Shown in pieces: positions 3,229 through 51,052 of a stretch of 64,000 bases of DNA. How positions within the stretch are numbered: position 1 is the stretch's first letter; each line of letters opens with the position of its first letter. Source of the DNA: an uncultured Chloroflexia bacterium (GTDB lineage: Bacteria > Chloroflexota > Limnocylindria > Limnocylindrales > CSP1-4); contig CAVRBO010000004.1 of the NCBI GenBank assembly GCA_963719285.1, forward strand, positions 324,898-388,897, written 5' to 3'. The notes under the pieces are model-generated. The model searched no databases, was not told where the DNA came from, and worked only from the letters and a program-made list of their open reading frames with translations. Position numbers and translations under genes: made by a program.

Positions 3229-4274
3229 CCGCGAAGATGTACTACGACAACGATGCCGATCCGTCCGCCCTGGCCGGCCAGACGGTCGCCATCGTCGGCT
3301 ACGGCAGCCAGGGCCATGCGCATGCGCTCAACCTGCACGAGTCGGGCGTGGACGTCGTCGTCGGGCTCCAGCCCGGCTCCAAGAGCCGTCCCCTGGCCCA
3401 GGAGGCGGGCCTCCGGGTGGCCGACGTCGGCGACGCCGTACGGGCGGCGGACGTGATCATGATCCTGGTCCCCGACACGGGCCAGAAGGCCGTCTACGAC
3501 ACGGACATCGCCCCGAACCTGCGGGCGGGCCAGCTCCTGATGTTCGCCCACGGCTTCAACATCCACTTCGGGCGGATCGACCCGCCCGGCGACGTGGACG
3601 TCGGCATGGTCGCGCCGAAGGGCCCGGGCCACCTCCTGCGCAGCGTCTACCAGGCCGGCGGCGGCGTGCCCGCGCTGTTCGCCGTTCATCGCGACGCGAG
3701 TGGCACCGCGCGTGCCCGTGTCCTGGCCTATGCCCGAGCCCTTGGCTCGACCCGGGCCGGCGTCCTCGAGACCACCTTCGCCGAGGAGACCGAGACCGAC
3801 CTGTTCGGGGAGCAGTCCGTCCTGTGCGGCGGCACCGCCTCGCTCGTCAAGATGGCGTTCGAGACGCTCGTCGAGGCGGGCTACCAGCCCGAGCTCGCGT
3901 ACTTCGAGACGATGCACGAGCTGAAGCTCATCGTCGACCTGATGTATCGCGGCGGGCTCAACTTCATGCGCTTCTCGGTCAGCGACACGGCCGAGTATGG
4001 CGACTACGTCAGCGGCCCCCGGATCATCGACGAACGCGTCCGCGAGACGATGCGCCAGGTTCTCGGCGAGATCCAGGACGGCACGTTCGCCCGGAACTGG
4101 ATCGCCGAGAGCGACGGTGGCCGTCACGAGTTCGAACGGCTGCGCGCCGCCGACCGCGACCATCAGATCGAACAGGTCGGCGCCGAGCTGCGCAGCCAGA
4201 TGGCGTTCCTCAACCCGGTGACGGTCGTGGCCGGCCAGGCCCAGGCGGCCGCCAGTTCGGGCTCTCGGTCGTGA
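3225..4274 (+). CDS. ilvC: ketol-acid reductoisomerase (class I KARI)
   Basis: N-terminus [33 protein letters not shown] and the [11 protein letters not shown] motif. ATGA overlap with ilvN. Confidence 0.92.
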
Positions 4275-5923
4275 GCGCCGCCGGCGTACCCGGCGCCGGG
4301 GCGGGCGACGGCGGCCCAGGAGTCGCCGCCGGCACGGTCCGGATCTTCGACACCACCCTGCGGGACGGGGAGCAGGCGCCCGGCGCGGGCCTGACCGCGG
4401 CCGAGAAGCTCGAGGTCGCCCGCCAGCTCGCCCGGCTCAACGTCGACGTCATCGAGGCCGGCTTCCCGGCCGCCTCGCCCGGCGACTTCGAGGCCGTCCA
4501 GCGGATCGCCCGGGAGACGAAGGGCGTCGCGATCGCCGCGCTTGCCCGGTGCCGCGACGGCGACCCGCAGCGAGCCGTGGAGGCGATCCGGGTCGCCGAG
4601 CGACCGCACCTCCACGTGTTCATCGCCACGAGCGACATCCACCTTAAGCACAAGCTCCGGATCGACCGCGACCAGGCCCTCGCCGAGGCCCGCAAGTGGG
4701 TCGCCTACGGGCGCGAGGCGCTGGGCCGCGACGCCGAGATCGAGTTCTCCGCCGAGGACGCATCGCGCACCGACACCGACTACCTCATGCAGGTCTACGA
4801 GGCCGTCGTCGAGGCCGGTGCCTCGACCGTGAACATCCCGGACACGGTCGGGTACGCGATCCCGGCCGAGTTCGGCGCCCTGGTGGGTCGCGTCGTCAAG
4901 CTCGTCGGCCGCGACGCCACCGTGTCGGTCCATTGCCACAACGATCTCGGGCTGGCCACCGCCAACACGCTCGCGGCGGTCCAGGCCGGCGCCCGCCAGG
5001 TCGAGGTGACGATCAACGGCCTGGGCGAGCGCGCCGGCAACGCGTCGCTCGAGGAGGTCGTGATGGCCCTCCGGACGCGTCCCACCCAGTTCCCCAAGCT
5101 CGGGTCTCGCGTCGCCACGGAGCAGTTGACCGCCGCCAGCCGGCTCGTCAGCTACCTGACCGGATTCGCCGTGCAGCCGAACAAGGCGATCGTGGGCGGC
5201 AATGCCTTCGCCCACGAGAGCGGGATCCACCAGGACGGGGTCATCAAGAACCCGCTCACGTACGAGATCATGACCCCCCAGTCGATCGGGCTGACCGGCA
5301 GCCAGCTCACGATCGGCAAGCTGTCCGGCCGGCGCGGGCTGCAGGGCAAGCTGCGCGAGCTCGGCCACGACATCGAGGGCGACCGACTGGACATCGTCTA
5401 CCGCGCGGCGATCGCGCTCGCCGACGCCAAGAAGGAGGTCACCGACGCGGATCTCCTCGCGCTCGTCGAGCAGAACACCGCCGAGGTGCCGGCGTCCGTC
5501 ATCCTCGAGGGCTGGAGCGTCACGTCCTCACACGGTGGCAACGCGACCGGGACGGTCACGCTCACGGTGGCCGGCCAGGAGCGGAGCGCCGAGGCGACCG
5601 GCAATGGACCGGTGAACGCGCTCTACGGAGCGGTCGACAAGGCCATCGAGCCGGTGCTCGGCTGGACGCCCGTCCTCAGCGAGTACGAGATCAAGGCGGT
5701 CTCAGCCGGCGAGGACGCCCAGGGACAGACCCTCGTCCGGTGCCGCCGTTCCACGGATACCGGGACCGGGGCGTTCACCGTGACCGGCCACGGGTTGTCG
5801 ACGAACATCATCGAGGCGAGCCTCGAGGCGTATCTCGTCGCGGTCAACAAGCTCCATGGGGCCGAGATCGGCAGCGTGAGCTCCGCGTTCGTGGCGCGCA
5901 CGAGCTCCGAGGAAGCCCCGTGA
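4271..5923 (+). CDS. leuA: 2-isopropylmalate synthase
   Basis: [18 protein letters not shown]...[17 protein letters not shown]... plus C-terminal LeuA_dimer regulatory domain ([13 protein letters not shown]). GTG at 4271 overlaps the ilvC stop (GTGA). The Arg-rich 5' part of ORF 3191..5923 is rejected. Confidence 0.85.
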
Positions 5924-7134
5924 CCGACGAGCGGACGATCGCCGACGTCCGGGCCCAGGCGGGTGTCGGCGCCGAGGCGGGCGCCGGCGGCCCGTCGTAC
6001 CGGCTCGCGTCGATCCGGGGCGACGGCGTCGGTCCGGAGGTCGTCGGTCACGCCCGGTCGGTCCTCGAGGCCGCCGCGACGGCATTCGGGTTCCGGCTCG
6101 ACTGGGTCGAGGTCCTCGCCGGCGGCGCCGCGATCGACACCCATGGAGTCGCCATCCGGCCGGCCGACGTGGAGCTGTGCGGCACGGCGGACGCCGTCCT
6201 TTTGGGCGCGGTCGGCGGGCCGCGCTGGGACGACCCGAACGCGAAGGTCCGTCCGGAACAGGCCCTGTTCGCCCTGCGTGGTGGTCTCGGGCTGTACGCG
6301 AACCTGCGGCCGATCACGATCCATCCGGTCCTCATCCCGTCCTCGCCATTGCGGCCGGAGCTGCTCGCCGGGGTCGACCTGCTCATCGTCCGCGAACTGA
6401 CCGGCGGCATCTACTTCGGGCGACCCTCGGAGGAGCGAGAGACGCCGGCGGGGCGCGTCGCCGTCGACACGCTCTGGTACACCGACGCGGAGATCGCCCG
6501 GATCGTCCGCCTCGCCTTCACGCTCGCCCGGACCCGGCGGGGCCGGGTCACCCAGGTCGACAAGGCCAACGTGCTGGCCTCCAGCCGGCTGTGGCGCAAG
6601 GTCACCGAAGAGGTCCGGACGGAGTTCCCGGACGTGGAGCTCGAGCACCGACTCGTGGACTCGGCGGCGATGCTCCTCGTCACCCGGCCGTCCGCCTTCG
6701 ACGTCGTCGTCACCGAGAACCTGTTCGGCGACATCCTGTCGGACGAGGCGGCCGTCCTGGCGGGCTCGCTGGGGATGCTCCCCTCGGCCTCGCTGGGGGA
6801 GCGCCGGACCGCCCACGGCACGTTCGGCCTGTACGAGCCCATCCACGGCTCCGCGCCGGACATCGCCGGGCAGGACCGGGCGAACCCGATCGGGACGGTC
6901 CTGTCGGCGGCGATGCTGTGCCGCTGGTCGCTCGGCCGGGCCGATGTGGCCGAGGCGATCGAGGCCGCCGTCAGCGGTGCCCTGACCGACGGATTCCGCA
7001 CGCAAGACCTCACCGCCCCGGCCGGCCACGCGCACGTGACCGTGGGCGGGGGCCGGGAGATGGCCCAGGCAGTGGTGGACAGGATCGCGATTCCACGGGC
7101 GGCGCCGGCGACGGCAGCCGCCCGGACCGCGTGA
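5920..7134 (+). CDS. leuB: 3-isopropylmalate dehydrogenase
   Basis: SIRGDGVGPEVV..., NLRP..., ELTGGIYFG..., NLFGDILSDEAA..., EPIHGSAPDIAG are isocitrate/isopropylmalate dehydrogenase family motifs. GTG at 5920 overlaps the leuA stop. Confidence 0.85.
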   Translation: MTDERTIADVRAQAGVGAEAGAGGPSYRLASIRGDGVGPEVVGHARSVLEAAATAFGFRLDWVEVLAGGAAIDTHGVAIRPADVELCGTADAVLLGAVGGPRWDDPNAKVRPEQALFALRGGLGLYANLRPITIHPVLIPSSPLRPELLAGVDLLIVRELTGGIYFGRPSEERETPAGRVAVDTLWYTDAEIARIVRLAFTLARTRRGRVTQVDKANVLASSRLWRKVTEEVRTEFPDVELEHRLVDSAAMLLVTRPSAFDVVVTENLFGDILSDEAAVLAGSLGMLPSASLGERRTAHGTFGLYEPIHGSAPDIAGQDRANPIGTVLSAAMLCRWSLGRADVAEAIEAAVSGALTDGFRTQDLTAPAGHAHVTVGGGREMAQAVVDRIAIPRAAPATAAARTA

Positions 7135-7168
7135 CCCCCCGCACCCGATCGTCCACCAGGAGCCTTCC

Positions 7169-8866
7169 GTGACCCGCCAGACCGCCGCCCAGCCGACATC
7201 GTCCCCATCCGCCGCCCCGCCCGACCGCCCGGTCGTCCTGTACGACACGACCCTGCGCGACGGGACCCAGGGCGAGAACATCATCCTGTCGCTCGCCGAC
7301 AAGCTCCGGATCGCCCGGATGCTCGACGAGTTCGGGATGCCCTACATCGAGGGCGGCTGGCCGGGCTCGAACCCCAAGGACGTCGACTTCTTCGCCGCCG
7401 CCAAGACCATGACCTGGCGGACCGCCCGGCTGGCGGCCTTCGGCTCGACCCGCCACCGCGCGAACCGGCCAGAGGCGGACCCGAACCTGCAGGCACTCGT
7501 CGCCGCCGAGACGCCGGTCGTGACGATCTTCGGCAAGAGCTGGCTCCTCCATGTCGTGGAGGTCCTGGGTGCGAGCCCGGCCGAGAACCTCGACATGGTC
7601 GCCGACTCCGTGGGCTTCGTGGTCGACCGGGGACGCGAGGCCGTCTACGACGCGGAGCACTATTTCGACGGCTACAAGGCCGACCGCGACTACGCGCTCG
7701 CCACGCTCGGTGCCGCGCGCCAGGCCGGCGCCCGCTCGATCGTGCTGTGCGACACGAACGGCGGGACGCTCACCGACGACCTCATCGCGATCGTGCGCGA
7801 CACGATGGCCGCGCTTGATGGGGACCCGTCCGCACCTTCGGTCGCCTGGGGCATCCACACCCACAACGACGCCGAGCTGGCCGTCGCCAACTCCATGGCC
7901 GCCGTGGCCAGCGGCGTGCGCCACGTCCAGGCGACGATCAACGGGTACGGCGAGCGCTGCGGCAACGCGAACATGGTCAGCATCCTGGCCAATCTCGCGC
8001 TCAAGACCCCCCACGTGCTCGTACCGACCGGCGGCGGGGACCTGGCCGATCTCACGACCCTCGCCCGGAGCGTGGCCGAGATCGCCAACATCACCCCGAA
8101 CGACTTCCAGCCGTACGTCGGCCGCTCCGCGTTCGCCCACAAGGGCGGCGTCCACGGCGCGGCGGTGGCCAAGGTGGAGCGGAGCTACCAGCACGTCGAC
8201 CCGGCGAGCGTGGGCAACGAGGGCCGGCTCGTCGTGTCGGAGCTCGGCGGCCGGGCCAACACCCAGCTTCGTGCGGAGCAGCTCGGTCACAAGCTGGAGG
8301 GCGTGGTGGATGCGCGGGCCCTCTCGGTCATCATCAAGCAGCTCGAATCGGATGGCCTCGCGTTCGAGGGCGCCGAAGCCTCGTTCGAGCTCCTCATCCG
8401 GCGCAACCAGCCGGGCTATGTCGCCCCGTTCCGGATCGTCGACTTCACCGTCCTGGTGGAGCAGCGGGACGGCCAGGAGCTGCGGGCCGAGGCGACCGTG
8501 AAGGTCGCCGTGGACGGCGAGACGCTGCACACCGCGGCGGACGGCAACGGGCCCGTGAACGCGCTGGACACCGCGTTGCGCAAGGCGCTCGGTGCCTTCT
8601 ATCCGGTCCTCGACGACGTCCATCTCGTCGACTACAAGGTCCGTATCCTCGACGGCGAGGCGGCCACGGGCGCCCGTACCCGGGTCGTCATCGATTCGCG
8701 CGACGGCGACCGGTCGTGGTCGACGATGGGCAGCGACACGAACATCATCACCGCTTCCTGCGTCGCCCTCGGCGACTCGCTCGAGTACGCGATCTGGAAG
8801 TCCGACGCCCTGCTCCAACGGCGCGATGAGCGCCACTTCACCACCGCATCGAATACCGGGAGATAG
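7169..8866 (+). CDS. cimA: (R)-citramalate synthase (LeuA/HCS family, CimA clade), threonine-independent 2-oxobutanoate route
   Basis: LYDTTLRDGTQGE...IEGGWPGSNPKDVDFF is the CimA-type signature (cf. Geobacter/Leptospira CimA). C-terminal LeuA_dimer domain present. Confidence 0.75.
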   Translation: MTRQTAAQPTSSPSAAPPDRPVVLYDTTLRDGTQGENIILSLADKLRIARMLDEFGMPYIEGGWPGSNPKDVDFFAAAKTMTWRTARLAAFGSTRHRANRPEADPNLQALVAAETPVVTIFGKSWLLHVVEVLGASPAENLDMVADSVGFVVDRGREAVYDAEHYFDGYKADRDYALATLGAARQAGARSIVLCDTNGGTLTDDLIAIVRDTMAALDGDPSAPSVAWGIHTHNDAELAVANSMAAVASGVRHVQATINGYGERCGNANMVSILANLALKTPHVLVPTGGGDLADLTTLARSVAEIANITPNDFQPYVGRSAFAHKGGVHGAAVAKVERSYQHVDPASVGNEGRLVVSELGGRANTQLRAEQLGHKLEGVVDARALSVIIKQLESDGLAFEGAEASFELLIRRNQPGYVAPFRIVDFTVLVEQRDGQELRAEATVKVAVDGETLHTAADGNGPVNALDTALRKALGAFYPVLDDVHLVDYKVRILDGEAATGARTRVVIDSRDGDRSWSTMGSDTNIITASCVALGDSLEYAIWKSDALLQRRDERHFTTASNTGR

Positions 8867-18099: not shown

Positions 18100-18913
18100 C
18101 CCGGGGCCGATCCTCCTGCGCGAACCGACGGCGTGGGGGGTGCGCCTCACGCTGAACCGCCCGGCCAAGCTCAACGCGCTGTCCGCCGAGCTGCGCGACG
18201 CGCTGACCGCCGCGGTCGCCGATGCCGAGGCGGATGCGGACGTCCGGGTCATCGCGATCGCCGGTGCCGGCCGCGCCTTCTGCTCGGGCTACGACCTGTC
18301 CGAGGAGGCGCCTGCCGATGTCTGGGGTTGGCGGGCGATCCTCGCCGAGGACGTCGCCGCGACCCTGGCCATCTGGCGCTGCCCGAAGCCGGTCATCGCC
18401 CAGGTCCACGGCTTCGCACTCGCCGGCGGGCTGGAGCTCGCGATGGCCTGCGATCTCGTGGTCGCCTCCGATGACGCCCGCCTGGGCGAGCCCGAGATCC
18501 GGTTCGGGTCTGCGCCGGTCACCCTGCTCATGCCGTTCCTCATCGGCCAGAAGGCCACCCGCGAACTGTTGATGACGGGCGACCTCGTCGATGCGTCGGA
18601 GGCGCGCCGGATGGGCCTCGTCAACCGCGTGGTGCCGCTCGACAGCCTCGCCGCCGAGGTGGATGCGCTCGCCGAGACCCTCGCCAAGGTCGAGCCCGAC
18701 GTGATGGCCCCCACCAAGCTCATGCTCAATCGGGCGATGGAGGCCTCGGGCTTCCTCGCGGCGGTCGAGTCCGGCCTCGACCTGCAGTCGATCGTGAACA
18801 CGAGCGCGACCGCGCGCGCGTTCGACGAGATCGTCCGGCGCGACGGCCTGAAGGCCGCGCTCCACTGGCGCGACAGGCGCTACGAGGAACGGCTGGCCGA
18901 TCGAGGCCGCTGA
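18092..18913 (+). CDS. enoyl-CoA hydratase/isomerase (crotonase) family
   Basis: LNRPAKLNALS..., GAGRAFCSGYDL..., HGFALAGGLELAMACD. GTG at 18092 overlaps the preceding stop. Confidence 0.85.
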   Translation: MPDPGPILLREPTAWGVRLTLNRPAKLNALSAELRDALTAAVADAEADADVRVIAIAGAGRAFCSGYDLSEEAPADVWGWRAILAEDVAATLAIWRCPKPVIAQVHGFALAGGLELAMACDLVVASDDARLGEPEIRFGSAPVTLLMPFLIGQKATRELLMTGDLVDASEARRMGLVNRVVPLDSLAAEVDALAETLAKVEPDVMAPTKLMLNRAMEASGFLAAVESGLDLQSIVNTSATARAFDEIVRRDGLKAALHWRDRRYEERLADRGR

Positions 18914-18970
18914 GGACGGCACCGCCCCGTGGGACCTTGGTCCCGCGACCCCCCCCGGCGTTGCGCACCG

Positions 18971-18989
18971 GCTCCGAGTGGCTCGGAGC
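18971..18989 (+). terminator. hairpin gctccgag-tgg-ctcggagc downstream of the enoyl-CoA hydratase gene (no T tract)
   Basis: 8-bp perfect inverted repeat seen in sequence. High-GC organisms often lack U-tracts. Confidence 0.25.
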
Positions 18990-19238
18990 GCGGTCCACGC
19001 ACGACCCACCCTCGTGGCGGAACCAATCCGATGGGACCAAGGTACCGCCCCGACTGGTCCCCTCGTCCGATGGAGTGGTGCGCATCTGGTCCGTTTAGAT
19101 GAGGCCCATCAGCTGGATGGGCTACCGAGACCGGGTATCGCGAGACCTCAGACCCGTCGGACGCCCCTGCAGACCCGCGCCAACACCGCCCGGCAGTCGC
19201 CGGACGGCCCGTTTCAGCCAGACAAAGGGGTTTCTGTC

Positions 19239-19823
19239 ATGCCTGAGATCGCCACCACGGACCCCGACCGGAACCGCCGCCGGCGGCGCCGGGGCCTCAT
19301 CGTCCTCATCCTCGCCCTGTCCGTGGCCAGCCTGGGGGCCGGTGCCTTCTCGCTCGCTATCTTCACGGACTCCGATGCCTCGACCGGCACGTTCACCGCC
19401 GGCACGATCGACATCGCGACGAATCCGACCACGCTGTTCACGGTCGCCGCGCTCATGCCCGGCGACTCCGGCAGCGCGACCCTCACCGTCAACAACAACG
19501 GCACGGGCCAGCTCCGCTACGCGATGACAAGCGCCTCGACGAACGCGGACACGAAGTCCCTGCGCGACCAACTCCAGCTGACCGTCCGTCCGGGCGCGTG
19601 CCCGAGCGCGGCGGCGACGATCTACAACGGCGCACTCAGCGGAGCGGCCTTCGGCAGCACCGCACAGGGCGCGCAGGCTGGCGACCGGACCCTGAACGCG
19701 GCCTCCAGCGAACAGCTCTGCTTCGGCTGGTCGTTCGCCCTCGCGAGCGGCAACGGCTATCAGGGCGCGACCACGACGACCACGTTCACCTTCACCGCGG
19801 AGCAGACCTCGAACAACCCGTAA
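19239..19823 (+). CDS. TasA/camelysin-like secreted protein with SipW-cognate class signal peptide
   Basis: N-terminus ...RRRRRGLIVLILALSVASLGAGAFSLAIFTDSDASTGTFTAGTIDI carries the A-x-F-T/S-D...F-x-x-G-T-(I/L)-D-(I/L) signature of TasA/SipW-cognate proteins. RBS AAAGGGG upstream of ATG 19239. Confidence 0.7.
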   Translation: MPEIATTDPDRNRRRRRRGLIVLILALSVASLGAGAFSLAIFTDSDASTGTFTAGTIDIATNPTTLFTVAALMPGDSGSATLTVNNNGTGQLRYAMTSASTNADTKSLRDQLQLTVRPGACPSAAATIYNGALSGAAFGSTAQGAQAGDRTLNAASSEQLCFGWSFALASGNGYQGATTTTTFTFTAEQTSNNP

Positions 19824-19937
19824 CCCTCCGGCTGCGCTCGTTCGCCGCGGCTCGCCTGGATCACCTCATCCGGCTGAGTCGCGGCTGACGGGTCGCCAGC
19901 CCGGTGTGGGCCTTCTCCCCCAGAGAGGCAGGCACCC

Positions 19938-20654
19938 ATGGGCATCACGCCCGCGCCGATCGCTGCGGTGGCGCAGCGGCACCAGAACCCATATCGCATC
20001 GTCCGCTGGATCCTCGATGCCGCGCTCATCGGGCTGATCGTCGTCGCCCTCGCAGGAGCCGCACTCGGCAGGCTCGTGCCATTGACCGGTCGCGAGACGC
20101 TCATCATCGGGGGCGCGTCGATGGAGCCGGAGATCGCGCTCGGGGCGGCCGTCGTCATCGAGCCCGTCAGCCCGGACCAGATCGCCGTCGGCGACATCGT
20201 GAGCCTTCGTTCGGGCGAGGGCCTCAAGAGCATCTTCACCCACCGGGTCACGCGGGTCATCAACCGCTCGGACGGGATCTGGATCGAAACCAAGGGCGAC
20301 GCGAACCGGATCATCGACGCGTCGATCACGCCGGCGACGAACGTCATCGGGCGGGTCGTCCTGAACGTTCCCTACGGCGGGTTCCTGCTGAAGCTGCTGT
20401 CCATCCCGAGCGGGGTGACCCTGATGATCTGCCTCGCCGGCGCCCTCGTCGCGTCGACCTGGCTGGTCGAGACCGTGGAGATCGAGCGCCGTCGCTGGCC
20501 CCGTCCGGTGCCCGCCGGCGCCAGGTCGGCCGAGGGCAGACCAGCAGACGCCGCGACTCCGGCGGTCGGCCCGGTCCGCAGGGCACGGAAGCGGCGCGCC
20601 GCCGCCCAGGGTCCCTCCGCGGCGGCGGCCGGCGCCGGGGACGACGGGGCATGA
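19938..20654 (+). CDS. sipW: signal peptidase I, SipW (archaeal/ER) type
   Basis: TM helix then ...IIGGASMEPEIALGAAVV...IWIETKGDANRIID... (SipW/Sec11 type catalytic Ser-His motifs). Basic/Ala-rich C-terminal tail. Confidence 0.8.
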   Translation: MGITPAPIAAVAQRHQNPYRIVRWILDAALIGLIVVALAGAALGRLVPLTGRETLIIGGASMEPEIALGAAVVIEPVSPDQIAVGDIVSLRSGEGLKSIFTHRVTRVINRSDGIWIETKGDANRIIDASITPATNVIGRVVLNVPYGGFLLKLLSIPSGVTLMICLAGALVASTWLVETVEIERRRWPRPVPAGARSAEGRPADAATPAVGPVRRARKRRAAAQGPSAAAAGAGDDGA

Positions 20655-21649
20655 CCTCGTCGACGATCCGGCGGGCGCGCGACCGTCACGCCGGCGGGCG
20701 GCCCCACCTGCCGCGGATCCTGGCAGCGCTCGTCACCGTGAGCCTTGTCGCGGCCGGGGTCGCGTCGGTGCGGACGACACTGGCCGTCTTCACGGATTCC
20801 TCGACCGCGTCGTCGACGATCACCGCCGCGACGCTCCACCCGCCGACCGGGCTGTCCGCGGCCGCCGGCGCCACGGTCACGCTGTCGTGGACACCCACGG
20901 TCGACCCGGTCGCGGCCGGCTACTACGTGCTCCGGTCGACGACGAGCGGGTCGGGCTACGCCCAGATCGCCACCGTGACCCCGAAGTCCGTCGCGTCCAC
21001 GACGAACACTCCGTCTGCGTCCGGCCGGTACTACTACGTGCTCCAGACCGAATTCCAGAATTGGACGAGCTCCAACAGCACAGAGGCCTCGGCGCTGTTC
21101 CTCCTGCCGGCGGTGACGACCGCGACCGTGCCCTGCGCCAGCGGCCTGAATGCCGCTGAGGCGGGCGGCGACAACAACGGTTACCAGACCCGGCCGAACT
21201 CGGCCTGCGACCTGGGTGCGAATTTCGCCGCGGACAACAACACGGGATCGGCCGGTCATGACGCGACGTGCAACAACGCCGCCAACGACCGCCACCAGTT
21301 CTGGGGCTTCAACCTGGGCCTCGGCGCGACCGTGTTCCAGGTCAACTCCATCACCGTTCGGGCCGACGCATCGCGAACCAAGAACACCGCGGGCACCAAC
21401 AACCTGTGCGCCCAGCTTTCGTGGGACGGCGGCGCGAACTGGTCGAATATCCAGTCCGTCGCCGTCACGTCGACCACCCTGACGACCTACACGATCGGCG
21501 GTTCTGTGGCCGGCTGGGGCGCTCACGCCTGGACGAAGGCCGACCTCACGTCACCGAACCTCCGGGTCCGGGTCTACGACGCGACCGATGTCGCGACCCA
21601 GTCGTACCGCCTGGACTACCTCGCGGTGACCGTCGACTACAACCCGTAG
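20651..21649 (+). CDS. second, larger (333 aa) SipW-cognate signal-peptide secreted protein (TasA-like N-terminus, Ser/Thr/Asn-rich body)
   Basis: ...LVTVSLVAAGVASVRTTLAVFTDSSTASSTITAATL... shows the same signature as gene 19239. ATG overlaps the sipW stop (ATGA). Confidence 0.7.
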   Translation: MTSSTIRRARDRHAGGRPHLPRILAALVTVSLVAAGVASVRTTLAVFTDSSTASSTITAATLHPPTGLSAAAGATVTLSWTPTVDPVAAGYYVLRSTTSGSGYAQIATVTPKSVASTTNTPSASGRYYYVLQTEFQNWTSSNSTEASALFLLPAVTTATVPCASGLNAAEAGGDNNGYQTRPNSACDLGANFAADNNTGSAGHDATCNNAANDRHQFWGFNLGLGATVFQVNSITVRADASRTKNTAGTNNLCAQLSWDGGANWSNIQSVAVTSTTLTTYTIGGSVAGWGAHAWTKADLTSPNLRVRVYDATDVATQSYRLDYLAVTVDYNP

Positions 21650-22211: not shown

Positions 22212-23573
22212 TTACAGGCGATGCACCCGAGTGCAGTCGGAGATCCTGAGGACCGATCCCGATGACAGCGGCTGGTGGTTGCCTCCCACCGTCAGGCCAT
22301 CGACGTGCGCGAACCGGAGGATCGGCCCGGGTCCCTCCACCGTGGAGGTGTTGTTCGTGAACACGATGCTCCTGCGGCGGGCGATCGTGATGTTCGTCCG
22401 CAGAGTCCCGCCGGTGATCCGGTTGCCGCTCACGGTGACGTTGCTGACGCGCGATCCAGGGGCTCCGTTCGCGGTGAGGAACGCGTTCGTCCAGGTCCCC
22501 GCGGTGTTGGACAGGAACTTGATCGAGACGGCACCCTGGCTCGCGTTGTCGGGCTTGATCGCGAACACGTTGTGGCCGTTCGTCCGGAAGTCGACCCGCT
22601 GCACGGTCACCATCCGCCCGGCGGTGACGGACACGCCGTTACGCCCCGCGGACAGGCAATCCGAGTCGTGGAAGGTGACGTCGGACGCCCACGACCTGAC
22701 GGTGAGGCAGTCGCCCCACACGCCGCTCACGGTCAGATGATGGATGTCGATGTGGCTGCCGCCGGCGACCAGGATGCCCGCGGCACCATCTCGTCCCGCC
22801 TGGAAGACGCCGGGCGACGGGTCGTCGCCGATGAGCCTGAAGTTCTCGATCGTGATCCCGGTGTCGCCCCCGCCGGACGAGGCGAGCCAGAACAGCGACC
22901 CGGCTTCGGTGGCCGGTCCATGGGACCGCAGCGTGGCGCCATTCCCGTTGAGGGTCAGGCCGTGCCGCCGGACGAGCCTGATCGCGCCGTCCAGGCGATA
23001 GACCCCCTGGGCCCGGAATACGATGGTCGAGCCATCCTTGACCCTGCCGATGAACGCGTTGAGGGCCGCGCTGGCGTCGCGCGAGCCGGTTGAGTCGATC
23101 GCCGCCGGGACGGAGATCCCGGCCGGCGCGGAGGGTGGCTCCGGCGTGGGCCGGGCGGACGGCTTCGGCGCCGGCCGCGTCGCCGGGATGGGCGGCGGCT
23201 CGAGGGTCACGGTCAGCCTGGCCGGCCCGGGTTTCGGTGTCGACAGCGGCGTGGGTGCGGGGCTCGATCCGAGGCCACCGTCCCAACCGGGGCTCCCGGG
23301 GAACCAGGCATCGGCGGGCCGGTCCGATGGGTCGCCGAGCGCCGGCCCGTCAGCCGGCCCGACCGGACCACCGCCCCAGGGATCGGCTTCCTGGTCCGCC
23401 AGTCGCGCCGCGATGGAAGCCCAGGCCAGGGTGAACATGAGGGCGGCGACCAGCACCAGGCCGATGGCTTGGGCCACTCGCTGCGGGAACGGTGCCGCGA
23501 GCCCAAGAGGTGGATCGTCGTCCGGCGATGGCGTGCCCTGTGGCGCCGTGAGGCGCAGGTCGACGAGACGCAC
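22212..23573 (-). CDS. membrane-anchored right-handed parallel beta-helix (pectin-lyase-fold) protein, putative polysaccharide-active enzyme
   Basis: N-terminal TM anchor, Pro-rich linker, then repetitive beta-helix coils (NGNGATL..., ITIENFRLIGDD..., HIDIHHLTVSGVWGDCLTV..., SDCLSAGRNGVSV..., VSNVTVSGNRITGG). Confidence 0.65.
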   Translation of the reverse strand: MRLVDLRLTAPQGTPSPDDDPPLGLAAPFPQRVAQAIGLVLVAALMFTLAWASIAARLADQEADPWGGGPVGPADGPALGDPSDRPADAWFPGSPGWDGGLGSSPAPTPLSTPKPGPARLTVTLEPPPIPATRPAPKPSARPTPEPPSAPAGISVPAAIDSTGSRDASAALNAFIGRVKDGSTIVFRAQGVYRLDGAIRLVRRHGLTLNGNGATLRSHGPATEAGSLFWLASSGGGDTGITIENFRLIGDDPSPGVFQAGRDGAAGILVAGGSHIDIHHLTVSGVWGDCLTVRSWASDVTFHDSDCLSAGRNGVSVTAGRMVTVQRVDFRTNGHNVFAIKPDNASQGAVSIKFLSNTAGTWTNAFLTANGAPGSRVSNVTVSGNRITGGTLRTNITIARRRSIVFTNNTSTVEGPGPILRFAHVDGLTVGGNHQPLSSGSVLRISDCTRVHRL

Positions 23574-35157: not shown

Positions 35158-35326
35158 GTGCCATGTTCTCCGATAAGGTGGGCGGCGGACCCTGGGCAGG
35201 CGCGACGAAGGTACCCCCGCCACGATCCGGTCCGTCCTCTATCGTACGACCGGTGCTCCAAGCGTGGAGCCCGGGTCGCCCACCCGGGGCTCTCCGGCGC
35301 TCGCCCCAGTCCCAGCGGAGAACATC

Positions 35327-46495: not shown

Positions 46496-48511
46496 TCAGC
46501 GGAAGTAGAACTGGATATCCACCGGGCTGTACTGGTAGAGGTCCGCCCAGGTCGTGCCATTGCCGGAGCTCTGGCCGGAGCCGTCCCGGAAGGCCGTGGA
46601 CATGAGGCCCACGTCGGTGCCTTCGCGGATCGGCGCGGCCGTGTACTCCGTCCCGGACGGCGTGGTGAGGCGGAGGTTGTACGACGTTCCGTTGACCAGC
46701 GTGTGCGCCGAGCCGAAGGTCACTCCGACCCACACCGAACCGCCGTTGTCGCCGCCCGCCGCGCTCGCCGGGACGGAGCTGGCGGCGACATTGGCCGAAT
46801 CGATGAGCGTGCCGGAGCCTGTCTCCAGGCGGATCGTGAGCGGGCTCGAGCCGCTCGTCCGGCGGACCCGGACGAAGGCCTTGCTGATCGTGCGGTCGCC
46901 GCCCGAGACCGTGAAGTGCTCGCGGACGGACGCCGAGCCCGAGATCGTCCCGTAGAGTTCGACGATGTTCGCGATGTAGGCCATCCCGTCGTGGACGCCG
47001 TTCGAGTAGGCGAGGTCCATGTCCGCGGTGTACCTGCCCTCGACCGACCAGCTCGACGGGGCGGCGGTCAGGACGGCGTAGTCGGCGTCGGCGAACGCCG
47101 GCTGGCGGGGGGTCAGGGTGGAGCCGTAGACGAAGAGCTCATTGACGCTGAAGTAGTTCCCGACGGGATTCGCGTCGATGTTCTCGAACACGATGTAGTA
47201 GCGCGAGCCCTTCGTGAGCGTGGCCGGCGACGGGAAGGTCACCGCGTCGTACGTGGTCCAGGCGCCGGACGGGTTGCCCGGCGAGTACGTGGCCGCGGCG
47301 AGCACGGTGCCGGACGGAACGCCGCTGGCGTCGGTCTGGACGGTGATCCGGTATGTCCCGCCGTTACCTCCGGAATAGATCGGCCCGCCGCGTTGCTGGA
47401 AGCGCACGCTCTTGAGCGCGGAGGTCGTGCTCGCGACGAACCGGTGGGCGACCTTCGCCCGATCCGTCCAGCCGACCTGCAGGTTGGCCTTGGTGTCGAA
47501 GTTGAACGCGGCCCCGTAGATCCCGCCGGACCCGGGCTGGGGTGTGGTCGTGGGATCCGGGGTCTGGGTCGCGCCCGGCGTCGCCGTCGGCTTCGCGGTG
47601 GGATCCGGCGTGGCGGTCGGGTCCGTGGTCGCGGTCGGATCGGGCGTCCCGGTCGGATCGGGGCTTGCCGTCGCGGTGGGATCCGGCGTCGCGGTCGGGT
47701 CCGCGCCGCTGGGCATGGTCGTGAACGTGAAGTCGGTCGAGACCGACAATCGGCCACCGGCGTCCTGCGAACGGACCCGGTAGTGATACTGCGTGCCGGG
47801 CGCGAGGCCCGAGACCTTCTGAGCGTGGGCGGTGTACTGGAGCGACTTCTCCGGCGCGGTCTCCTGGCCGTAGGCCGTCGTCGTGCCGTAGTCGACCTGC
47901 CCGGTGGCGGGTTCGTCCAGTCGCCAGGTGACGAGTGCCGCCGTGTCACTGACGCTCGTCGCCTTCACCAGGCTGATCGATGGAGGCGTCGTCCTTCCCG
48001 GGTTCTTGCGCGTGACCCGGACATTCACGGTCGTGACCGCGGGTGTGTGCGGGAGCGCCGAACGGGCGAGCGTGCCGGCGACGACCCTGACGGCCGAGGT
48101 GCGATCGACCCGCGAGAAGGTCGCGCTGTGGACCCCGCTCGTGGCCGTGCCGGGGATCCGCAGATGGCCGTGGAACGTGCCCTTGACGCTCGGCCAGACG
48201 AGCCGGATCGCCCTCGGGACCGAATCCCAGTGGACCTGGTAGACCGCATGGGCCTTGAAGCCGCGCCCGTCGATGATGACCGTCTGGCCGGGGGCACCCG
48301 ACCCGGTCACGGAGACCGTGGGCCCGCTCGCGGCGTTGTCGATGTCATCGGGCGCCGGTGATGCGCTCCAGGCGAGGGCCGGGACGAAGAGCAGGAGGCC
48401 GATCGCGACGGTGAGGATGGGCAGTCGGCGCTTCGAGCTCGATCGTCTGGCCGGGGTCGACGGCGCGACGGCCGGGTCGGTGACCCAGGCGGTTCCATTC
48501 CAGAACGTCAT
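46496..48511 (-). CDS. paralog C of the secreted-protein array (N-term MTFWNGTAWVTD tail, RR signal anchor, Ig/Fn3-like modules, Pro/Thr/Asp linker, conserved C-terminal domain)
   Basis: Fn3-like segment ...LVTWRLDEPATGQVDYGTTTAYGQ...SGLAPGTQYHYRVRSQDAGG..., linker TATPDPTATASPDPTGTPDPTATTDPTATPDPT, then GIYGAAFNFDTKANLQVGWTD...VDIQFYFR. Confidence 0.75.
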   Translation of the reverse strand: MTFWNGTAWVTDPAVAPSTPARRSSSKRRLPILTVAIGLLLFVPALAWSASPAPDDIDNAASGPTVSVTGSGAPGQTVIIDGRGFKAHAVYQVHWDSVPRAIRLVWPSVKGTFHGHLRIPGTATSGVHSATFSRVDRTSAVRVVAGTLARSALPHTPAVTTVNVRVTRKNPGRTTPPSISLVKATSVSDTAALVTWRLDEPATGQVDYGTTTAYGQETAPEKSLQYTAHAQKVSGLAPGTQYHYRVRSQDAGGRLSVSTDFTFTTMPSGADPTATPDPTATASPDPTGTPDPTATTDPTATPDPTAKPTATPGATQTPDPTTTPQPGSGGIYGAAFNFDTKANLQVGWTDRAKVAHRFVASTTSALKSVRFQQRGGPIYSGGNGGTYRITVQTDASGVPSGTVLAAATYSPGNPSGAWTTYDAVTFPSPATLTKGSRYYIVFENIDANPVGNYFSVNELFVYGSTLTPRQPAFADADYAVLTAAPSSWSVEGRYTADMDLAYSNGVHDGMAYIANIVELYGTISGSASVREHFTVSGGDRTISKAFVRVRRTSGSSPLTIRLETGSGTLIDSANVAASSVPASAAGGDNGGSVWVGVTFGSAHTLVNGTSYNLRLTTPSGTEYTAAPIREGTDVGLMSTAFRDGSGQSSGNGTTWADLYQYSPVDIQFYFR
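47530..47705. repeat. degenerate tandem repeats encoding the (D/T)PTAT(P/A) linker in paralog C
   Basis: Repeated ggtgggatccggcg / gtcgcggtcgg(g/a)tc units seen in sequence. Confidence 0.4.
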
Positions 48512-48517
48512 GCGATC

Positions 48518-48605
48518 GTGTCTCCGTTCGGCAGCCCGGCTGACTCAGGGAGTTCCGTGGCTTTGCGACCCCGTCTCGCGGCGGGTGTGCTATTTCGTGG
48601 GACAT
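48518..48605 (-). ncRNA. candidate c-di-GMP-I (GEMM) riboswitch in the 5' leader of paralog C
   Basis: Minus-strand RNA: CACGAAAUAGCACACCCGCC-GCGA-GACGGGGUCGCAAAGCCACGGAACUCCCUGAGUCAGCCGGGCUGCCGAACGG, followed by GAGACACGAUCGC-AUG. Matches remembered GEMM-I hallmarks: GCA(A/c)ACC before a GNRA-capped P1 hairpin, then GGG(A/u)CGCAAAGCCACGG, then AGCCGGG..CCGAA. A near-identical copy lies upstream of paralog D. Confidence 0.45.
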
Positions 48606-48853: not shown

Positions 48854-50959
48854 TCAGCGGAAGTAGAACTGGATGTCGACCGGGCTGTAGGCGTACAGGT
48901 CCGCCCAGCTCGTCCCGTTGCTCGAGCTCTGGCCCGAGCCGTCGCGGAAGGCGGGGGAGAGGAGACCCACGTCGGTCCCTTCGCGGATCGGCGCGGAGGT
49001 GTACGTGGTGCCCGACGCCGTCGCCAGGCGCAGGTTGTAGGCCGTCCCGTTGGCGAGAGTGTGCGGGCTGCTGAAGGTCACCGTGACCCAGACCGACCCG
49101 CCGTTGTCGCCGCCCGGCGCGCTTGCGGCGATGGAGCTCGCCGGGACGTCGACCGCCTCGATGAGCGTGCCCGCGCCGGTCTCGAGCCGGATGGTCAGCG
49201 GGCTGGAGCCGCTCGTCCGGCGCACCCGGACCGATGCCTTGGTGACGGTGCGGTTTTCGCCGCTGACCGTGAAATGCTCACGGACCGACGCGCTGCCCGA
49301 GACCGTCCCGTACAGCTCGATGATGTTGGCGATGTAGGCCATCCCGTCATGGGTCCCATCCGCGTAGGTGAGATCCATGTCGGCGGTGTACTTGCTCTGG
49401 ACGGACCAGGTCGAGGGAGCCGCATAGAGGACCGCGTAGTCCGCGTCGGCGAAGGCCGGCTGACGGGGGGTCACGGCGCTGTAGGTGTACAGCTCGTTGA
49501 CGCTGAAGTAGTTGGCGGCCGAGTTCGCGTCGACGTTTTCGAACACGATGTTGTAGCGGATGCCCTTGGTCAGAGTGGCGGGGCTGCTGAACGTGACCAG
49601 GTCGTAGTGGGTCCACACGCCCGAGTTGCCCGGCGTGTAGCTGGCCGTCGCGAGGATCGTCCCGGAAGGCACGCCGTTCGAGTCGGTCTGGACGGTGATC
49701 CTGAGGGTGCCGCCGGTGCCGCCGGAGTAGATGGGCCCGCCGCGCTGCTGGAAGCGGATGCTCTTGAGGGCCGAGGTCGTCGTGGCCACGAACCGGTGGG
49801 CGACCTTCGCGTGATCGGTCCAACCGACCTGCAGGTTGGCCTTGGTATCGAAGTTGAACGCGGCTCCGTACGTCCCGGTCTGGCCGGGAGCCGGGGTCGC
49901 GGTCGGGGCGACGGTCGGAGTCGCCGTCGGGGCGACGGTCGGAGTCGCGGTCGGGGCGACGGTCGGAGTCGCCGTCGGGGCGACGGTCGGTGTCGCCGTC
50001 GGGGCGACGGTCGGTGTCGCCGTCGGCGTCGCGGTCGGGGCGCTCGTCGGTGTCGCCGTCGGGGTCGCGGTCGGAGCGACGGTCGGAGCGACCGTCGGGG
50101 TCGGGCTCGCCGCTCCGCCGATCGTCTTGAACGTGTCGTCGGACGAGACCGACAGGCGGCCGGCGGCATCCTGCGATCGGACCCGGAAGTGATAGACGGT
50201 CCCGGCGAGGAGGCCGCTCACCTGCTGGACGTGAGCGGAGTAGCGGAAGGATGTCTCGGCGGTCGTCAGGCGACCGTAGGCGGTCGTGGTGCCGAATTCG
50301 ACCTGGCCGGTGGCCGGCTCATCCAGGCTCCAGGACACGATCGCGCCGCTCGAACCGATGCTCGTCGCCGTCACGGCGCTGATGCGCGGTCCCGTCGCCG
50401 TCGTCGGGGCCGGGGTCGGGGTCGGCGTGGCGGTCCCGTTGGCGACCACGAACGTCGCGCTCGTGGTGGCGCGGCCGGCGGCAGTGACCGCGGTGACCGA
50501 GATCGTGTGCGAACCATTCGCCACCGTGGAGGTGTTCCAGGCGTTCGCGGTCTCGTTGTCGGCGGTCCCACGGAGGTCCCATGGAGCCGCCGCTTCGACG
50601 CGCATCGGCGTCGTGGTCATCGCGACGTCATCGAGCCAGAAGGTGACGCTGCTGGCGACGGTCTTGGTGGCCAGGAAGACGTAGCGATTGCCGGCGAGCG
50701 TGGCACCGTTGAGGGCGAACGGCTTGCTGCGGGTCCGGGCGGCAGAGGCGTCCAGCATGAAGCCGGTATTGGGCGTGGCGGCCGTGGACGAACGGTGGGC
50801 GGCTGCGACGGGCAGCTGGGGGAGGGCGACGGCGGCGGCGACGGCGAGGGTCACCACGGCCAGGAAGGGCACGCGGGCGAGGCGATGGAGACGCCGGGCG
50901 GGGACATGAGCGGGAGTGGTCGTTTCAGTGACCCAGGAGGTCCCATTCCAGGACGACAT
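48854..50959 (-). CDS. paralog D of the secreted-protein array (N-term MSSWNGTSWVTE tail, RR signal anchor, beta-sandwich module, Fn3-like module, long PT linker, conserved C-terminal domain)
   Basis: ...SWSLDEPATGQVEFGTTTAYGR...SGLLAGTVYHFRVRSQDAAG..., (ATPTVAPT)n linker, then GTYGAAFNFDTKANLQVGWTD...VDIQFYFR. RBS GGAG 10 nt upstream. Confidence 0.75.
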   Translation of the reverse strand: MSSWNGTSWVTETTTPAHVPARRLHRLARVPFLAVVTLAVAAAVALPQLPVAAAHRSSTAATPNTGFMLDASAARTRSKPFALNGATLAGNRYVFLATKTVASSVTFWLDDVAMTTTPMRVEAAAPWDLRGTADNETANAWNTSTVANGSHTISVTAVTAAGRATTSATFVVANGTATPTPTPAPTTATGPRISAVTATSIGSSGAIVSWSLDEPATGQVEFGTTTAYGRLTTAETSFRYSAHVQQVSGLLAGTVYHFRVRSQDAAGRLSVSSDDTFKTIGGAASPTPTVAPTVAPTATPTATPTSAPTATPTATPTVAPTATPTVAPTATPTVAPTATPTVAPTATPTVAPTATPAPGQTGTYGAAFNFDTKANLQVGWTDHAKVAHRFVATTTSALKSIRFQQRGGPIYSGGTGGTLRITVQTDSNGVPSGTILATASYTPGNSGVWTHYDLVTFSSPATLTKGIRYNIVFENVDANSAANYFSVNELYTYSAVTPRQPAFADADYAVLYAAPSTWSVQSKYTADMDLTYADGTHDGMAYIANIIELYGTVSGSASVREHFTVSGENRTVTKASVRVRRTSGSSPLTIRLETGAGTLIEAVDVPASSIAASAPGGDNGGSVWVTVTFSSPHTLANGTAYNLRLATASGTTYTSAPIREGTDVGLLSPAFRDGSGQSSSNGTSWADLYAYSPVDIQFYFR
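49893..50112. repeat. 24-bp tandem repeat (~9 copies, cgtcggggcgacggtcgg(a/t)gtcgc) encoding (TPTVAPTA)n in paralog D
   Basis: Near-perfect tandem copies seen in sequence. They are in-frame and length-variable in principle. Confidence 0.65.
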
Positions 50960-50967
50960 GCGATCTT

Positions 50968-51052
50968 GGCTCCATTCGATGACCCGGCTGACTCAGTGAG
51001 TCCCGTGGCTTTGCGGCCCCGTCTCGCGGCGGGTGTGCCATTTCGTGGTCCC
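50968..51052 (-). ncRNA. second candidate c-di-GMP-I (GEMM) riboswitch, in the 5' leader of paralog D
   Basis: Minus-strand RNA: CACGAAAUGGCACACCCGCC-GCGA-GACGGGGCCGCAAAGCCACGGGACUCACUGAGUCAGCCGGGUCAUCGAAUGG, followed by AGCCAAGAUCGC-AUG. The aptamer core is ~90% identical to the paralog C copy. Differences are concentrated in the 3' segment adjoining the RBS. Confidence 0.45.

Follow-up and report, generated by a model that had tools for sequence, protein, structure and literature searches.

A three-gene cassette predicted to build a TasA-superfamily fibre in an uncultured Limnocylindrales bacterium

Does a short gene cassette in a high-GC Chloroflexota genome specify an extracellular fibre of the kind that Bacillus subtilis makes from its tapA-sipW-tasA operon, and if so, what does its third gene contribute? 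The question is raised by positions 18914-21649 of a 64-kb window (the whole stretch of DNA that was analysed, 64,000 nucleotides of contig CAVRBO010000004.1 from an uncultured Limnocylindrales bacterium, ~71% GC throughout). Three co-directional open reading frames (ORFs), here called A, B and C, lie on the plus strand at 19239-21649, behind a 325-nt intergenic region (18914-19238) whose left boundary is the first base past the stop codon of an upstream enoyl-CoA hydratase gene; the stop codon of B and the start codon of C overlap (ATGA). An earlier description made from the letters of the DNA, which we call the sequence-only reading, saw two TasA-like fibre proteins around a signal peptidase within a larger matrix island. 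We arrive at a narrower assignment, to which we give a probability of roughly 0.6: an operon whose three genes would make an extracellular fibre of the TasA superfamily, with A as the major subunit, B as the peptidase that processes A and C, and C as a TapA-like initiator or end adhesin. We regard it as a variation on the biofilm-fibre system known from Bacillus and not as a system of a new kind. Coordinates of all features are collected in Table 1.

A TasA-family protein and a SipW-type peptidase

The product of gene A matches the Pfam family PF12389 (Peptidase_M73/TasA) at 57 bits, against a gathering cut-off of 22.5, over positions 7-86 of the 196 in the profile, and stays below the cut-off of the Bacillus TasA equivalog NF046066 (19.5 bits vs 450). 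Judged by these scores, A is a distant member of the TasA family and not the Bacillus protein itself. A homologue search returned 1,427 matches, and all 120 of those listed are PF12389 proteins of ~194 amino acids (aa); a homologue with 90% identity is named 'TasA family protein' by NCBI. A profile built from 24 homologues matches the TasA fibre and monomer entries 8aur and 5of1 in the PDB, aligning the mature N-terminal strand FTDSDASxGSFTAGTIDI with FNDIKSKDATFASGTLDL and the C-terminal strand, which carries a YQG..F.F.A.Q motif, with YQGATTTATFTFSAEQ on YQGNSIKLQFSFEATQ. In this profile alignment F42 and F52 of A fall on F29 and F39 of TasA. The donor strand in the TasA fibre structure comprises residues 28-38, with contacts made by F29, I32 and F39 (PMC9674648), so that two of the three hydrophobic donor-strand contacts are matched in A. 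Residues G55, T56 and F52 do not vary within the A family, and conservation of the protein peaks at the donor-strand residues. The AlphaFold2 model of A (mean predicted local distance difference test score, pLDDT, 77.8) is an all-beta sandwich behind the signal helix; in a Foldseek search of the PDB, TasA entries 5of2 (E 5e-4) and 5of1 (E 9.5e-4) rank second and third among many generic beta-sandwiches, at TM-scores of 0.39-0.47.

All structurally characterised members of the TasA superfamily polymerise via donor-strand complementation (PMC9245690, PMC9674648), and by this analogy A would be a major fibre subunit that polymerises by donor-strand insertion. One may instead consider that A is a secreted protein that does not polymerise, such as a monomeric surface protein or a protease like camelysin, and that the cassette is a small secretion unit without a fibre. 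The Pfam family takes its name from a reported metalloprotease activity, and A is shorter than TasA (~154 vs 234 aa in the mature forms), with a Pfam match confined to its N-terminal part. No protease model matched A, however, and only PF12389/TasA reached its cut-off; this result, together with the polymerisation of every structurally characterised relative and the concentration of conservation in the donor-strand residues, makes a fibreless cassette improbable.

Gene B encodes a signal peptidase I of the endoplasmic reticulum (ER)/archaeal type, with 76 bits on TIGR02228 (cut-off 51.85), 14.5 bits on the bacterial P-type model TIGR02227 (below its cut-off of 47) and 69.4 bits on the Bacillus SipW equivalog NF046067 (below its cut-off of 190). 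Among 57 syntenic homologues, S61, M62, H102, R103, G120, D121, N123 and D127 are invariant or nearly so; the catalytic Ser/His/Asp residues, S61 (in SMEP), H102 (THR), D121 (GDAN) and D127, are invariant. A Ser/His/Asp arrangement in place of the Ser-Lys dyad is the signature of SipW/Sec11-type enzymes, and the roles of the residues are taken from what is established for SipW. Two hydrophobic segments, at ~aa 19-51 and 148-180, lie one on each side of the catalytic domain as N- and C-terminal transmembrane segments, and the C-terminal tail is basic and Ala-rich. By the same analogy with SipW, B would cleave both A and C. The gene is intact in the window. At the related locus L001 (9111-9998, equivalent to window 19760-20650) it carries an indel relative to the window and has been called as a 195-aa antisense ORF, and none of the contigs looked up has a precomputed Pfam entry for the peptidase, so that this gene can escape annotation.

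Both presumed substrates of B carry SipW-type signal peptides (AIFTDSDASTGTFTAGTIDI in A, AVFTDSSTASSTITAATL in C), each after a basic n-region and a hydrophobic segment. A six-frame scan for the pattern [LTS][LA]A-x-[FYW]-[TSN]-D following a hydrophobic stretch found exactly two sites in the window, one in A and one in C, and these flank B; the earlier claim of two SipW-signal proteins on either side of a SipW/Sec11-type peptidase is borne out. On TIGR04088, the model of SipW-cognate signals, A reaches 18.0 bits (cut-off 19; E 0.0024; full-length match, 1-34/34), C gives no match at E <= 1, and only 2/31 aligned C-family proteins match at E < 0.1. Both A and C, encoded next to a SipW-type peptidase, have A-x-F-[TS]-D at the predicted cleavage site, and JGI labels several homologues of A and C with the TIGR04088 model name. 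In the profile check that the sequence-only reading had called for, A passes the TasA model, and neither protein passes the signal-peptide model. We predict cleavage at SLA/IFTD in A and at TLA/VFTD in C from the alignment to mature TasA and the -3/-1 rule. With Phe at P2', the TasA signal is reported to be a poor substrate of LepB (PMC10269814).

The n-regions of both signal peptides are unusually long and arginine-rich (19239-19300 and 20651-20720; RNRRRRRRG in A), with R16-R18 almost unchanged throughout the A family. They could represent the high-GC equivalent of the KKK of TasA, or a feature resembling twin-arginine translocation (Tat) signals.

An accessory protein with a donor-strand-like N-terminus

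The sequence-only reading described the second cargo protein, C, as large and rich in Ser, Thr and Asn; at 332 aa, with these three residues making up 30.7% of its sequence, it is both, and A is similar in composition (29.9%). C has no Pfam or NCBIfam family match, and its 287 homologues, of ~305-335 aa, are nearly all unnamed or 'hypothetical'. In the alignment of the family L-A does not vary at the predicted cleavage site; also seen are the conserved segment F-T-D-x3-S-T-x-[hydrophobic]-x-T-x-T-L-x-P-P-T, and four invariant Cys in the C-terminal half. When the profiles of the A and C families are aligned by hhalign, they match over 27 columns only (A 32-58, C 37-63; 95.5% probability, E 1.5e-8), which span the predicted cleavage site to about position +18. 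Counted from the predicted cleavage site, 31 homologues of C keep three features of this segment: P2' is aromatic or Leu, position +12 is hydrophobic, and +16/+17 read T-L.

The body of C is of a different kind. An FN3 domain follows the common segment (profile match to the Fn3-like 3mpc, E 4e-9; also seen by Foldseek), and the C-terminal domain gives a probability of 0.1% when aligned by hhalign to the TasA-like A family. The AlphaFold2 model of C has a pLDDT of 84.4, with values >90 over most of the mature protein. We therefore rejected the idea that C is a second TasA-like protein, since its body consists of FN3 and an unrelated Asp-box beta domain and only the 27 columns are common to A. 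The gene order that had been described as fibre-peptidase-fibre becomes fibre-peptidase-accessory. A TasA-like fold, suggested for both cargo proteins, may hold for A, whose model is all-beta with TasA among its structural matches at modest TM-scores, and does not hold for C.

The sole feature of residues ~160-332 of C that PDB profiles recognise is one Asp-box (LSWDGGxxW). Searched alone, this C-terminal domain of ~170 aa retrieves 855 clusters at 50% identity, and Pfam covers none of its occurrences. It is mostly C-terminal and sometimes in tandem (also in L070-L082), on otherwise unrelated secreted proteins that include subtilases, TadE/G-vWA proteins, P-domain proteins and ~1,000-aa proteins from metagenome-assembled genomes (MAGs) labelled Woesebacteria, Patescibacteria and Gammaproteobacteria. 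The ~170-aa Asp-box domain, with its four conserved Cys, is a candidate new domain family.

In the mechanism that we propose, A, as the abundant subunit, would be exported by Sec with a signal that, having an aromatic residue at P2', is cleaved poorly by ordinary LepB-type peptidases. The dedicated ER-type peptidase B would remove this signal after Ala40 and free the N-terminal strand IFTDSDASTGTFTAGTIDI, which would insert into the beta-sandwich of the next subunit by donor-strand complementation, as in B. subtilis TasA. B would also process the minor protein C after Ala45, and its free N-terminus, VFTDSSTASSTITAATL, would mimic the donor strand of A. Because C offers no TasA-like acceptor fold in its body, it would fit only one end of the fibre, where, like TapA, AbpB or a tip protein, it could give the first donor strand and nucleate the fibre while showing its C-terminal domain as an adhesin or as a binder of matrix or cell wall. 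A conserved stable hairpin past A and the coupled translation of B and C would set the stoichiometry of the parts, and transcription would probably start at a conserved promoter or operator motif ~200 nt upstream of A. We propose this scheme because of the analogy with the solved TasA fibre, with TapA and with other tip or minor proteins, and because of the incompatibility of a P2' Phe with LepB. TapA is similar to the donor strand of TasA and serves as a nucleator of fibres (PMC9674648, PMC10151520), and tip or minor proteins have been predicted at other TasA-superfamily loci (PMC9245690; bioRxiv 10.64898/2026.01.04.697558).

The chief competitor to this scheme holds that C is an independent secreted protein, binding glycan or matrix, that uses the SipW-type peptidase for export and never enters the fibre. 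TIGR04088 is, after all, defined as a signal-peptide model, the body of C is unrelated to A, and its C-terminal domain is a mobile module found also on subtilases, TadG/vWA proteins and giant proteins of the candidate phyla radiation (CPR) that have no link to TasA. What speaks for C as part of the fibre is the length and character of the common segment: conservation between A and C runs ~18 residues past the predicted cleavage, beyond the usual reach of signal-peptidase recognition, and preserves the hydrophobic pattern seen in the donor strand of TasA. In practically all loci that can be evaluated C accompanies A and B, and its presence in a fibre would have precedent in TapA and in the predicted TasA-superfamily tip proteins (PMC9674648; bioRxiv 10.64898/2026.01.04.697558). 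On balance we consider an independent C unlikely.

Several observations weigh against a fibre operon as a whole. The Pfam match of A is confined to the N-terminal 80 positions of a 196-position profile, and the Foldseek likeness of A to TasA is modest (TM-score 0.46). A lies 1 bit below the TIGR04088 cut-off and C has no match to this model; the N-terminal segment common to A and C could reflect recognition by the peptidase alone. C carries no anchor motif for membrane or cell wall that would hold a fibre on the cell. Finally, the hairpin past A has no U-tract, and a role for it as an attenuator is a guess.

We tentatively extend the fibre assignment, at somewhat less than even odds, to the proposal that C represents an undescribed and widely conserved class of fibre-end proteins for TasA-type filaments in Chloroflexota and some Actinomycetota, combining a donor-strand mimic, an FN3 domain and a mobile Asp-box adhesin; with the upstream motif and the hairpin, the cassette would then be a self-contained module with controlled stoichiometry, distinct from the TapA solution of Bacillus.

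Conservation and expression of the cassette

Synteny was assessed in 80 loci recovered with the C family, one genome per species. A and C occur together in 63 of these loci, with C identities of 33-79%; the order A-B-C is kept in the 59 that have a detectable B, and the 4 others have a weak B match below threshold. Wherever a full-length C is preceded by enough sequence to judge, the genes run in the order A, B, C, the sole exception being L034, which holds only a truncated C-type ORF of 243 aa. The order thus persists across ~60 loci at 33-90% identity, in MAGs labelled Limnocylindria (most), Dehalococcoidia, Acidimicrobiia, Frankiales and Mycobacteriales; close homologues are labelled Candidatus Limnocylindrales. 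A protein 100% identical to C is encoded on an 806-kb ENA metagenome contig (L001) and on a 5.3-kb Logan contig. The MAG chromosome of L065 carries two complete A/B/C sets within ~4.4 kb (3747-8154), and a second C in L040 and L053 and a second A in L060 likewise indicate that the cassette duplicates and diversifies.

A DNA motif of ~44 nt, GGGACCAAGGTACC-N9-TGGTCCC-N4-GTCC..T, lies about 165-205 nt before the start codon of A and is conserved at the same distance, about 170-220 nt upstream of A, in ~45 relatives. A sequence-only model of this motif, R1, scores 45.1 bits (E 5e-13) at 19031-19074, the window copy being among the 39 sequences used to build it, and in L083, L084 and L001, all outside the model alignment, it detects a single full copy per locus, always at that position. 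The 325-nt leader had been described as structured, which raises the possibility of a cis-regulatory RNA such as a riboswitch that controls the cassette. The length of the intergenic region, its local inverted repeats and the strong conservation of the ~44-nt block all favour such an element. Yet a search of the whole window against Rfam gave nothing in the leader at the gathering threshold, and a search of 18700-19400 at E <= 10 gave only a chance-level match to ASpks (E 6.9). The minimum free energy (MFE) of the leader is unremarkable (z-score -1.19), RNAalifold finds 0 consensus pairs in 46 aligned upstream regions, and changes in the GGGACC/GGTCCC arms are not compensatory, the block behaving as a DNA motif of fixed spacing. 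We consider a structured leader RNA very improbable, and the alignments indicate that the motif is probably a promoter or operator of unassigned type and not an RNA structure.

Sites of the sigma-54, extracytoplasmic function (ECF) and BldD-box types were compared with the motif by eye, and its spacing and conservation fit none of them convincingly; a scan for sigma-70 and terminator consensus sequences returned nothing useful. A perfect palindrome, GGGACCTTGGTCCC, lies at 18932-18945, ~100 nt upstream of the motif, with the same GGGAC/GTCCC half-sites, and L003 carries GGGACCATCGTCCC at the equivalent place; the palindrome and the motif half-sites together hint at a protein operator with repeated half-sites. 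A second, marginal match to the left half of the motif (GACGAAGGTACC, then CGGTCCGTCC; 11.9 bits, E 0.014) is found at 35204-35236 on the plus strand, its half-site at 35204-35222 sitting where an asparagine-synthase-like gene and an epimerase-flippase operon diverge. Judging by this half-site, it is possible that the cassette is co-regulated with the exopolysaccharide (EPS) genes.

Directly 3' of the stop codon of A lies a long intercistronic hairpin. The interval 19815-19945 has an MFE of -72.3 kcal/mol (z -4.68), and 0/200 shuffles are as stable. The element is conserved in related loci, where the 113 nt past the A stop have a median z of -3.0 over 57 loci and fall below -2 in 47/57; control windows do so in 3/61 cases inside A and 1/61 inside C. 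The hairpin is probably an attenuator or an mRNA-stabilising element that sets high expression of A and low expression of B and C. A second, smaller hairpin, in which CCUUCUC pairs with the GAGAGG Shine-Dalgarno-like sequence of B, is present in both the MFE and the centroid structures of the window sequence alone, and in this folding model it may occlude the ribosome-binding site of B. A hairpin past A combined with translational coupling of B and C is the arrangement that we would expect for making much A and little B and C.

Table 1. Features of the cassette and of the riboswitches inside the downstream EPS cluster, in window coordinates
Feature	Position	Strand	Basis or remark
Gene A, TasA-family protein, 194 aa	19239-19823	+	PF12389 match
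A signal peptide, aa 1-40	19239-19358	+	predicted cleavage SLA/IFTD, after Ala40
A putative N-terminal donor strand, aa 41-59	19359-19415	+	profile alignment to TasA
A beta-sandwich body	aa 60-194	+	
Gene B, ER/archaeal-type signal peptidase I (SipW-like), 238 aa	19938-20654	+	TIGR02228
Gene C, accessory protein, 332 aa	20651-21649	+	287 homologues
C SipW-type signal, aa 1-45	20651-20785	+	predicted cleavage TLA/VFTD, after Ala45
C donor-strand-like segment, aa 46-63	20786-20839	+	hhalign to A family
C FN3 domain, ~aa 64-150	20840-21100	+	profile match to 3mpc
C Asp-box beta domain, ~aa 160-332	21128-21646	+	PDB profile match to Asp-box
Conserved upstream DNA motif, ~44 nt	19031-19074	+	~45 relatives
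Long intercistronic hairpin	19830-19901	+	directly 3' of A stop, z -4.68
Second small hairpin	19903-19936	+	CCUUCUC pairs with GAGAGG Shine-Dalgarno-like sequence of B
c-di-GMP-I riboswitches (53.4 and 52.6 bits)	48527-48601, 50975-51049	-	Rfam, inside EPS cluster

Genomic neighbourhood, related systems and significance

Upstream of the cassette are genes for an acyl-CoA dehydrogenase, an ADP-forming CoA ligase and an enoyl-CoA hydratase, of which the dehydrogenase is syntenic in 36/63 relatives and the hydratase in 20/63. Downstream, on the opposite strand, a thioesterase and a beta-helix protein are followed by an EPS-type cluster that extends to ~54 kb (DegT, Bac_transf, ATP-grasp, TylF, Wzz/tyrosine kinase, family 4 glycosyltransferases, Wzy, flippase, epimerases and Polysacc_synt_2), as the sequence-only reading had noted. 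In L083 and L084 the cassette is likewise followed by beta-helix and EPS genes, which a third contig lacks at this place, and in the wider set homologues of the window's own EPS genes are rarely detected within 6 kb of it. A matrix neighbourhood is therefore plausible in this genome; a coherent matrix island does not hold up as a general feature, since the EPS surroundings recur in some relatives and not in all, and the conserved unit is the three-gene cassette of soil Chloroflexota. The beta-helix protein, two genes downstream (22212-23573, minus strand), is a secreted right-handed, pectate-lyase-like protein of 453 aa with a Pro/Ser-rich linker, and may be a matrix enzyme that modifies or degrades glycans; Beta_helix and PA14/NosD proteins occupy the equivalent place in L084 (13071-17020).

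The cyclic di-GMP (c-di-GMP) riboswitch genes that had been counted with the cassette belong elsewhere. The two riboswitches, at 48.5 and 51.0 kb on the minus strand, are 27-29 kb from the cassette and control other genes, lying directly upstream of secreted proteins of 671 aa (46496-48511) and 701 aa (48854-50959). These two proteins have similar N-termini, an FN3/Pur_ac_phosph_N-like domain and ordinary signal sequences, and the motif scan found no SipW-type signal in them at 46.5-51 kb.

Comparison with B. subtilis tapA-sipW-tasA shows which parts of the earlier analogy stand. Common to both are a dedicated peptidase of the ER type, a minor accessory whose N-terminus mimics the donor strand, and a major subunit, a jelly-roll in TasA and modelled as an all-beta sandwich in A, that bears this strand at its N-terminus. 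A TasA-family protein, a peptidase and two signal-bearing cargos do lie in one conserved cassette; the accessory and peptidase genes overlap in both, and EPS genes feed the same matrix. The order, by contrast, is mirrored here (fibre-peptidase-accessory), A is much shorter than TasA, and the equivalog scores are far apart (19.5 vs 450 for A, 69 vs 190 for B). Profile searches and domain content set C (FN3 and Asp-box) apart from TapA, which has a V-set Ig-like fold. Its co-operonic position with the peptidase and an N-terminus resembling a donor strand support the view that C 'works like TapA', not that it is a member of the TapA family. The upstream motif also differs, no SinR-type context was seen, and the host belongs to a high-GC Chloroflexota lineage. 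What is new relative to tapA-sipW-tasA is thus the mirrored order, a much shorter subunit and a non-homologous accessory with an unmodelled domain.

Other systems share some of these features. In the sipW-tasA ... calY region of B. cereus a SipW-type peptidase likewise stands beside cargo genes of the TasA family (Peptidase_M73/camelysin), but these are two TasA paralogues without TapA, whereas here one TasA-like gene is joined by a non-TasA accessory. The archaeal bundling pili (AbpA/AbpB) and AbpX-type loci resemble the cassette in pairing a short major subunit (~150-180 aa mature) with an adjoining multi-domain, beta-rich accessory, proposed as fibre starter and adhesin; a signal peptidase I gene is often adjacent, and the tip folds vary by lineage. 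Unlike here, no dedicated peptidase is found in AbpA loci, and the peptidases associated with AbpX have ten transmembrane helices, compared with two hydrophobic segments in B. A also matches PF12389 directly, which places it in the central TasA cluster, and the domains of C differ from those of AbpB. A further parallel is PamR of the CPR Pam pilus (bioRxiv 10.64898/2026.03.03.709456), an FnIII protein with an extra N-terminal strand that is predicted to enter the terminal pilin and so cap or anchor a donor-strand filament; the pilins of that system are unrelated and assembled with a chaperone, and PamR has a C-terminal transmembrane helix, which C does not.

To our knowledge, TasA fibres have been studied by experiment almost only in Bacillus and a few archaea. 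TasA homologues in Chloroflexota have been noted at the level of Pfam distribution (PMC9245690), and our literature search found no paper on TasA in Limnocylindria or on the accessory family of C.

Limnocylindria are abundant and mostly uncultured Chloroflexota of soil and freshwater whose surface biology is poorly known. The cassette overturns no current idea about TasA-type fibres. It gives a large family of 'hypothetical' proteins a possible function, points to an extracellular domain that current models miss, in spite of its 855 clusters, and, being compact and strictly syntenic, with a very short major subunit and a non-TapA accessory, offers a minimal system for testing the nucleation and attachment of TasA-type fibres.

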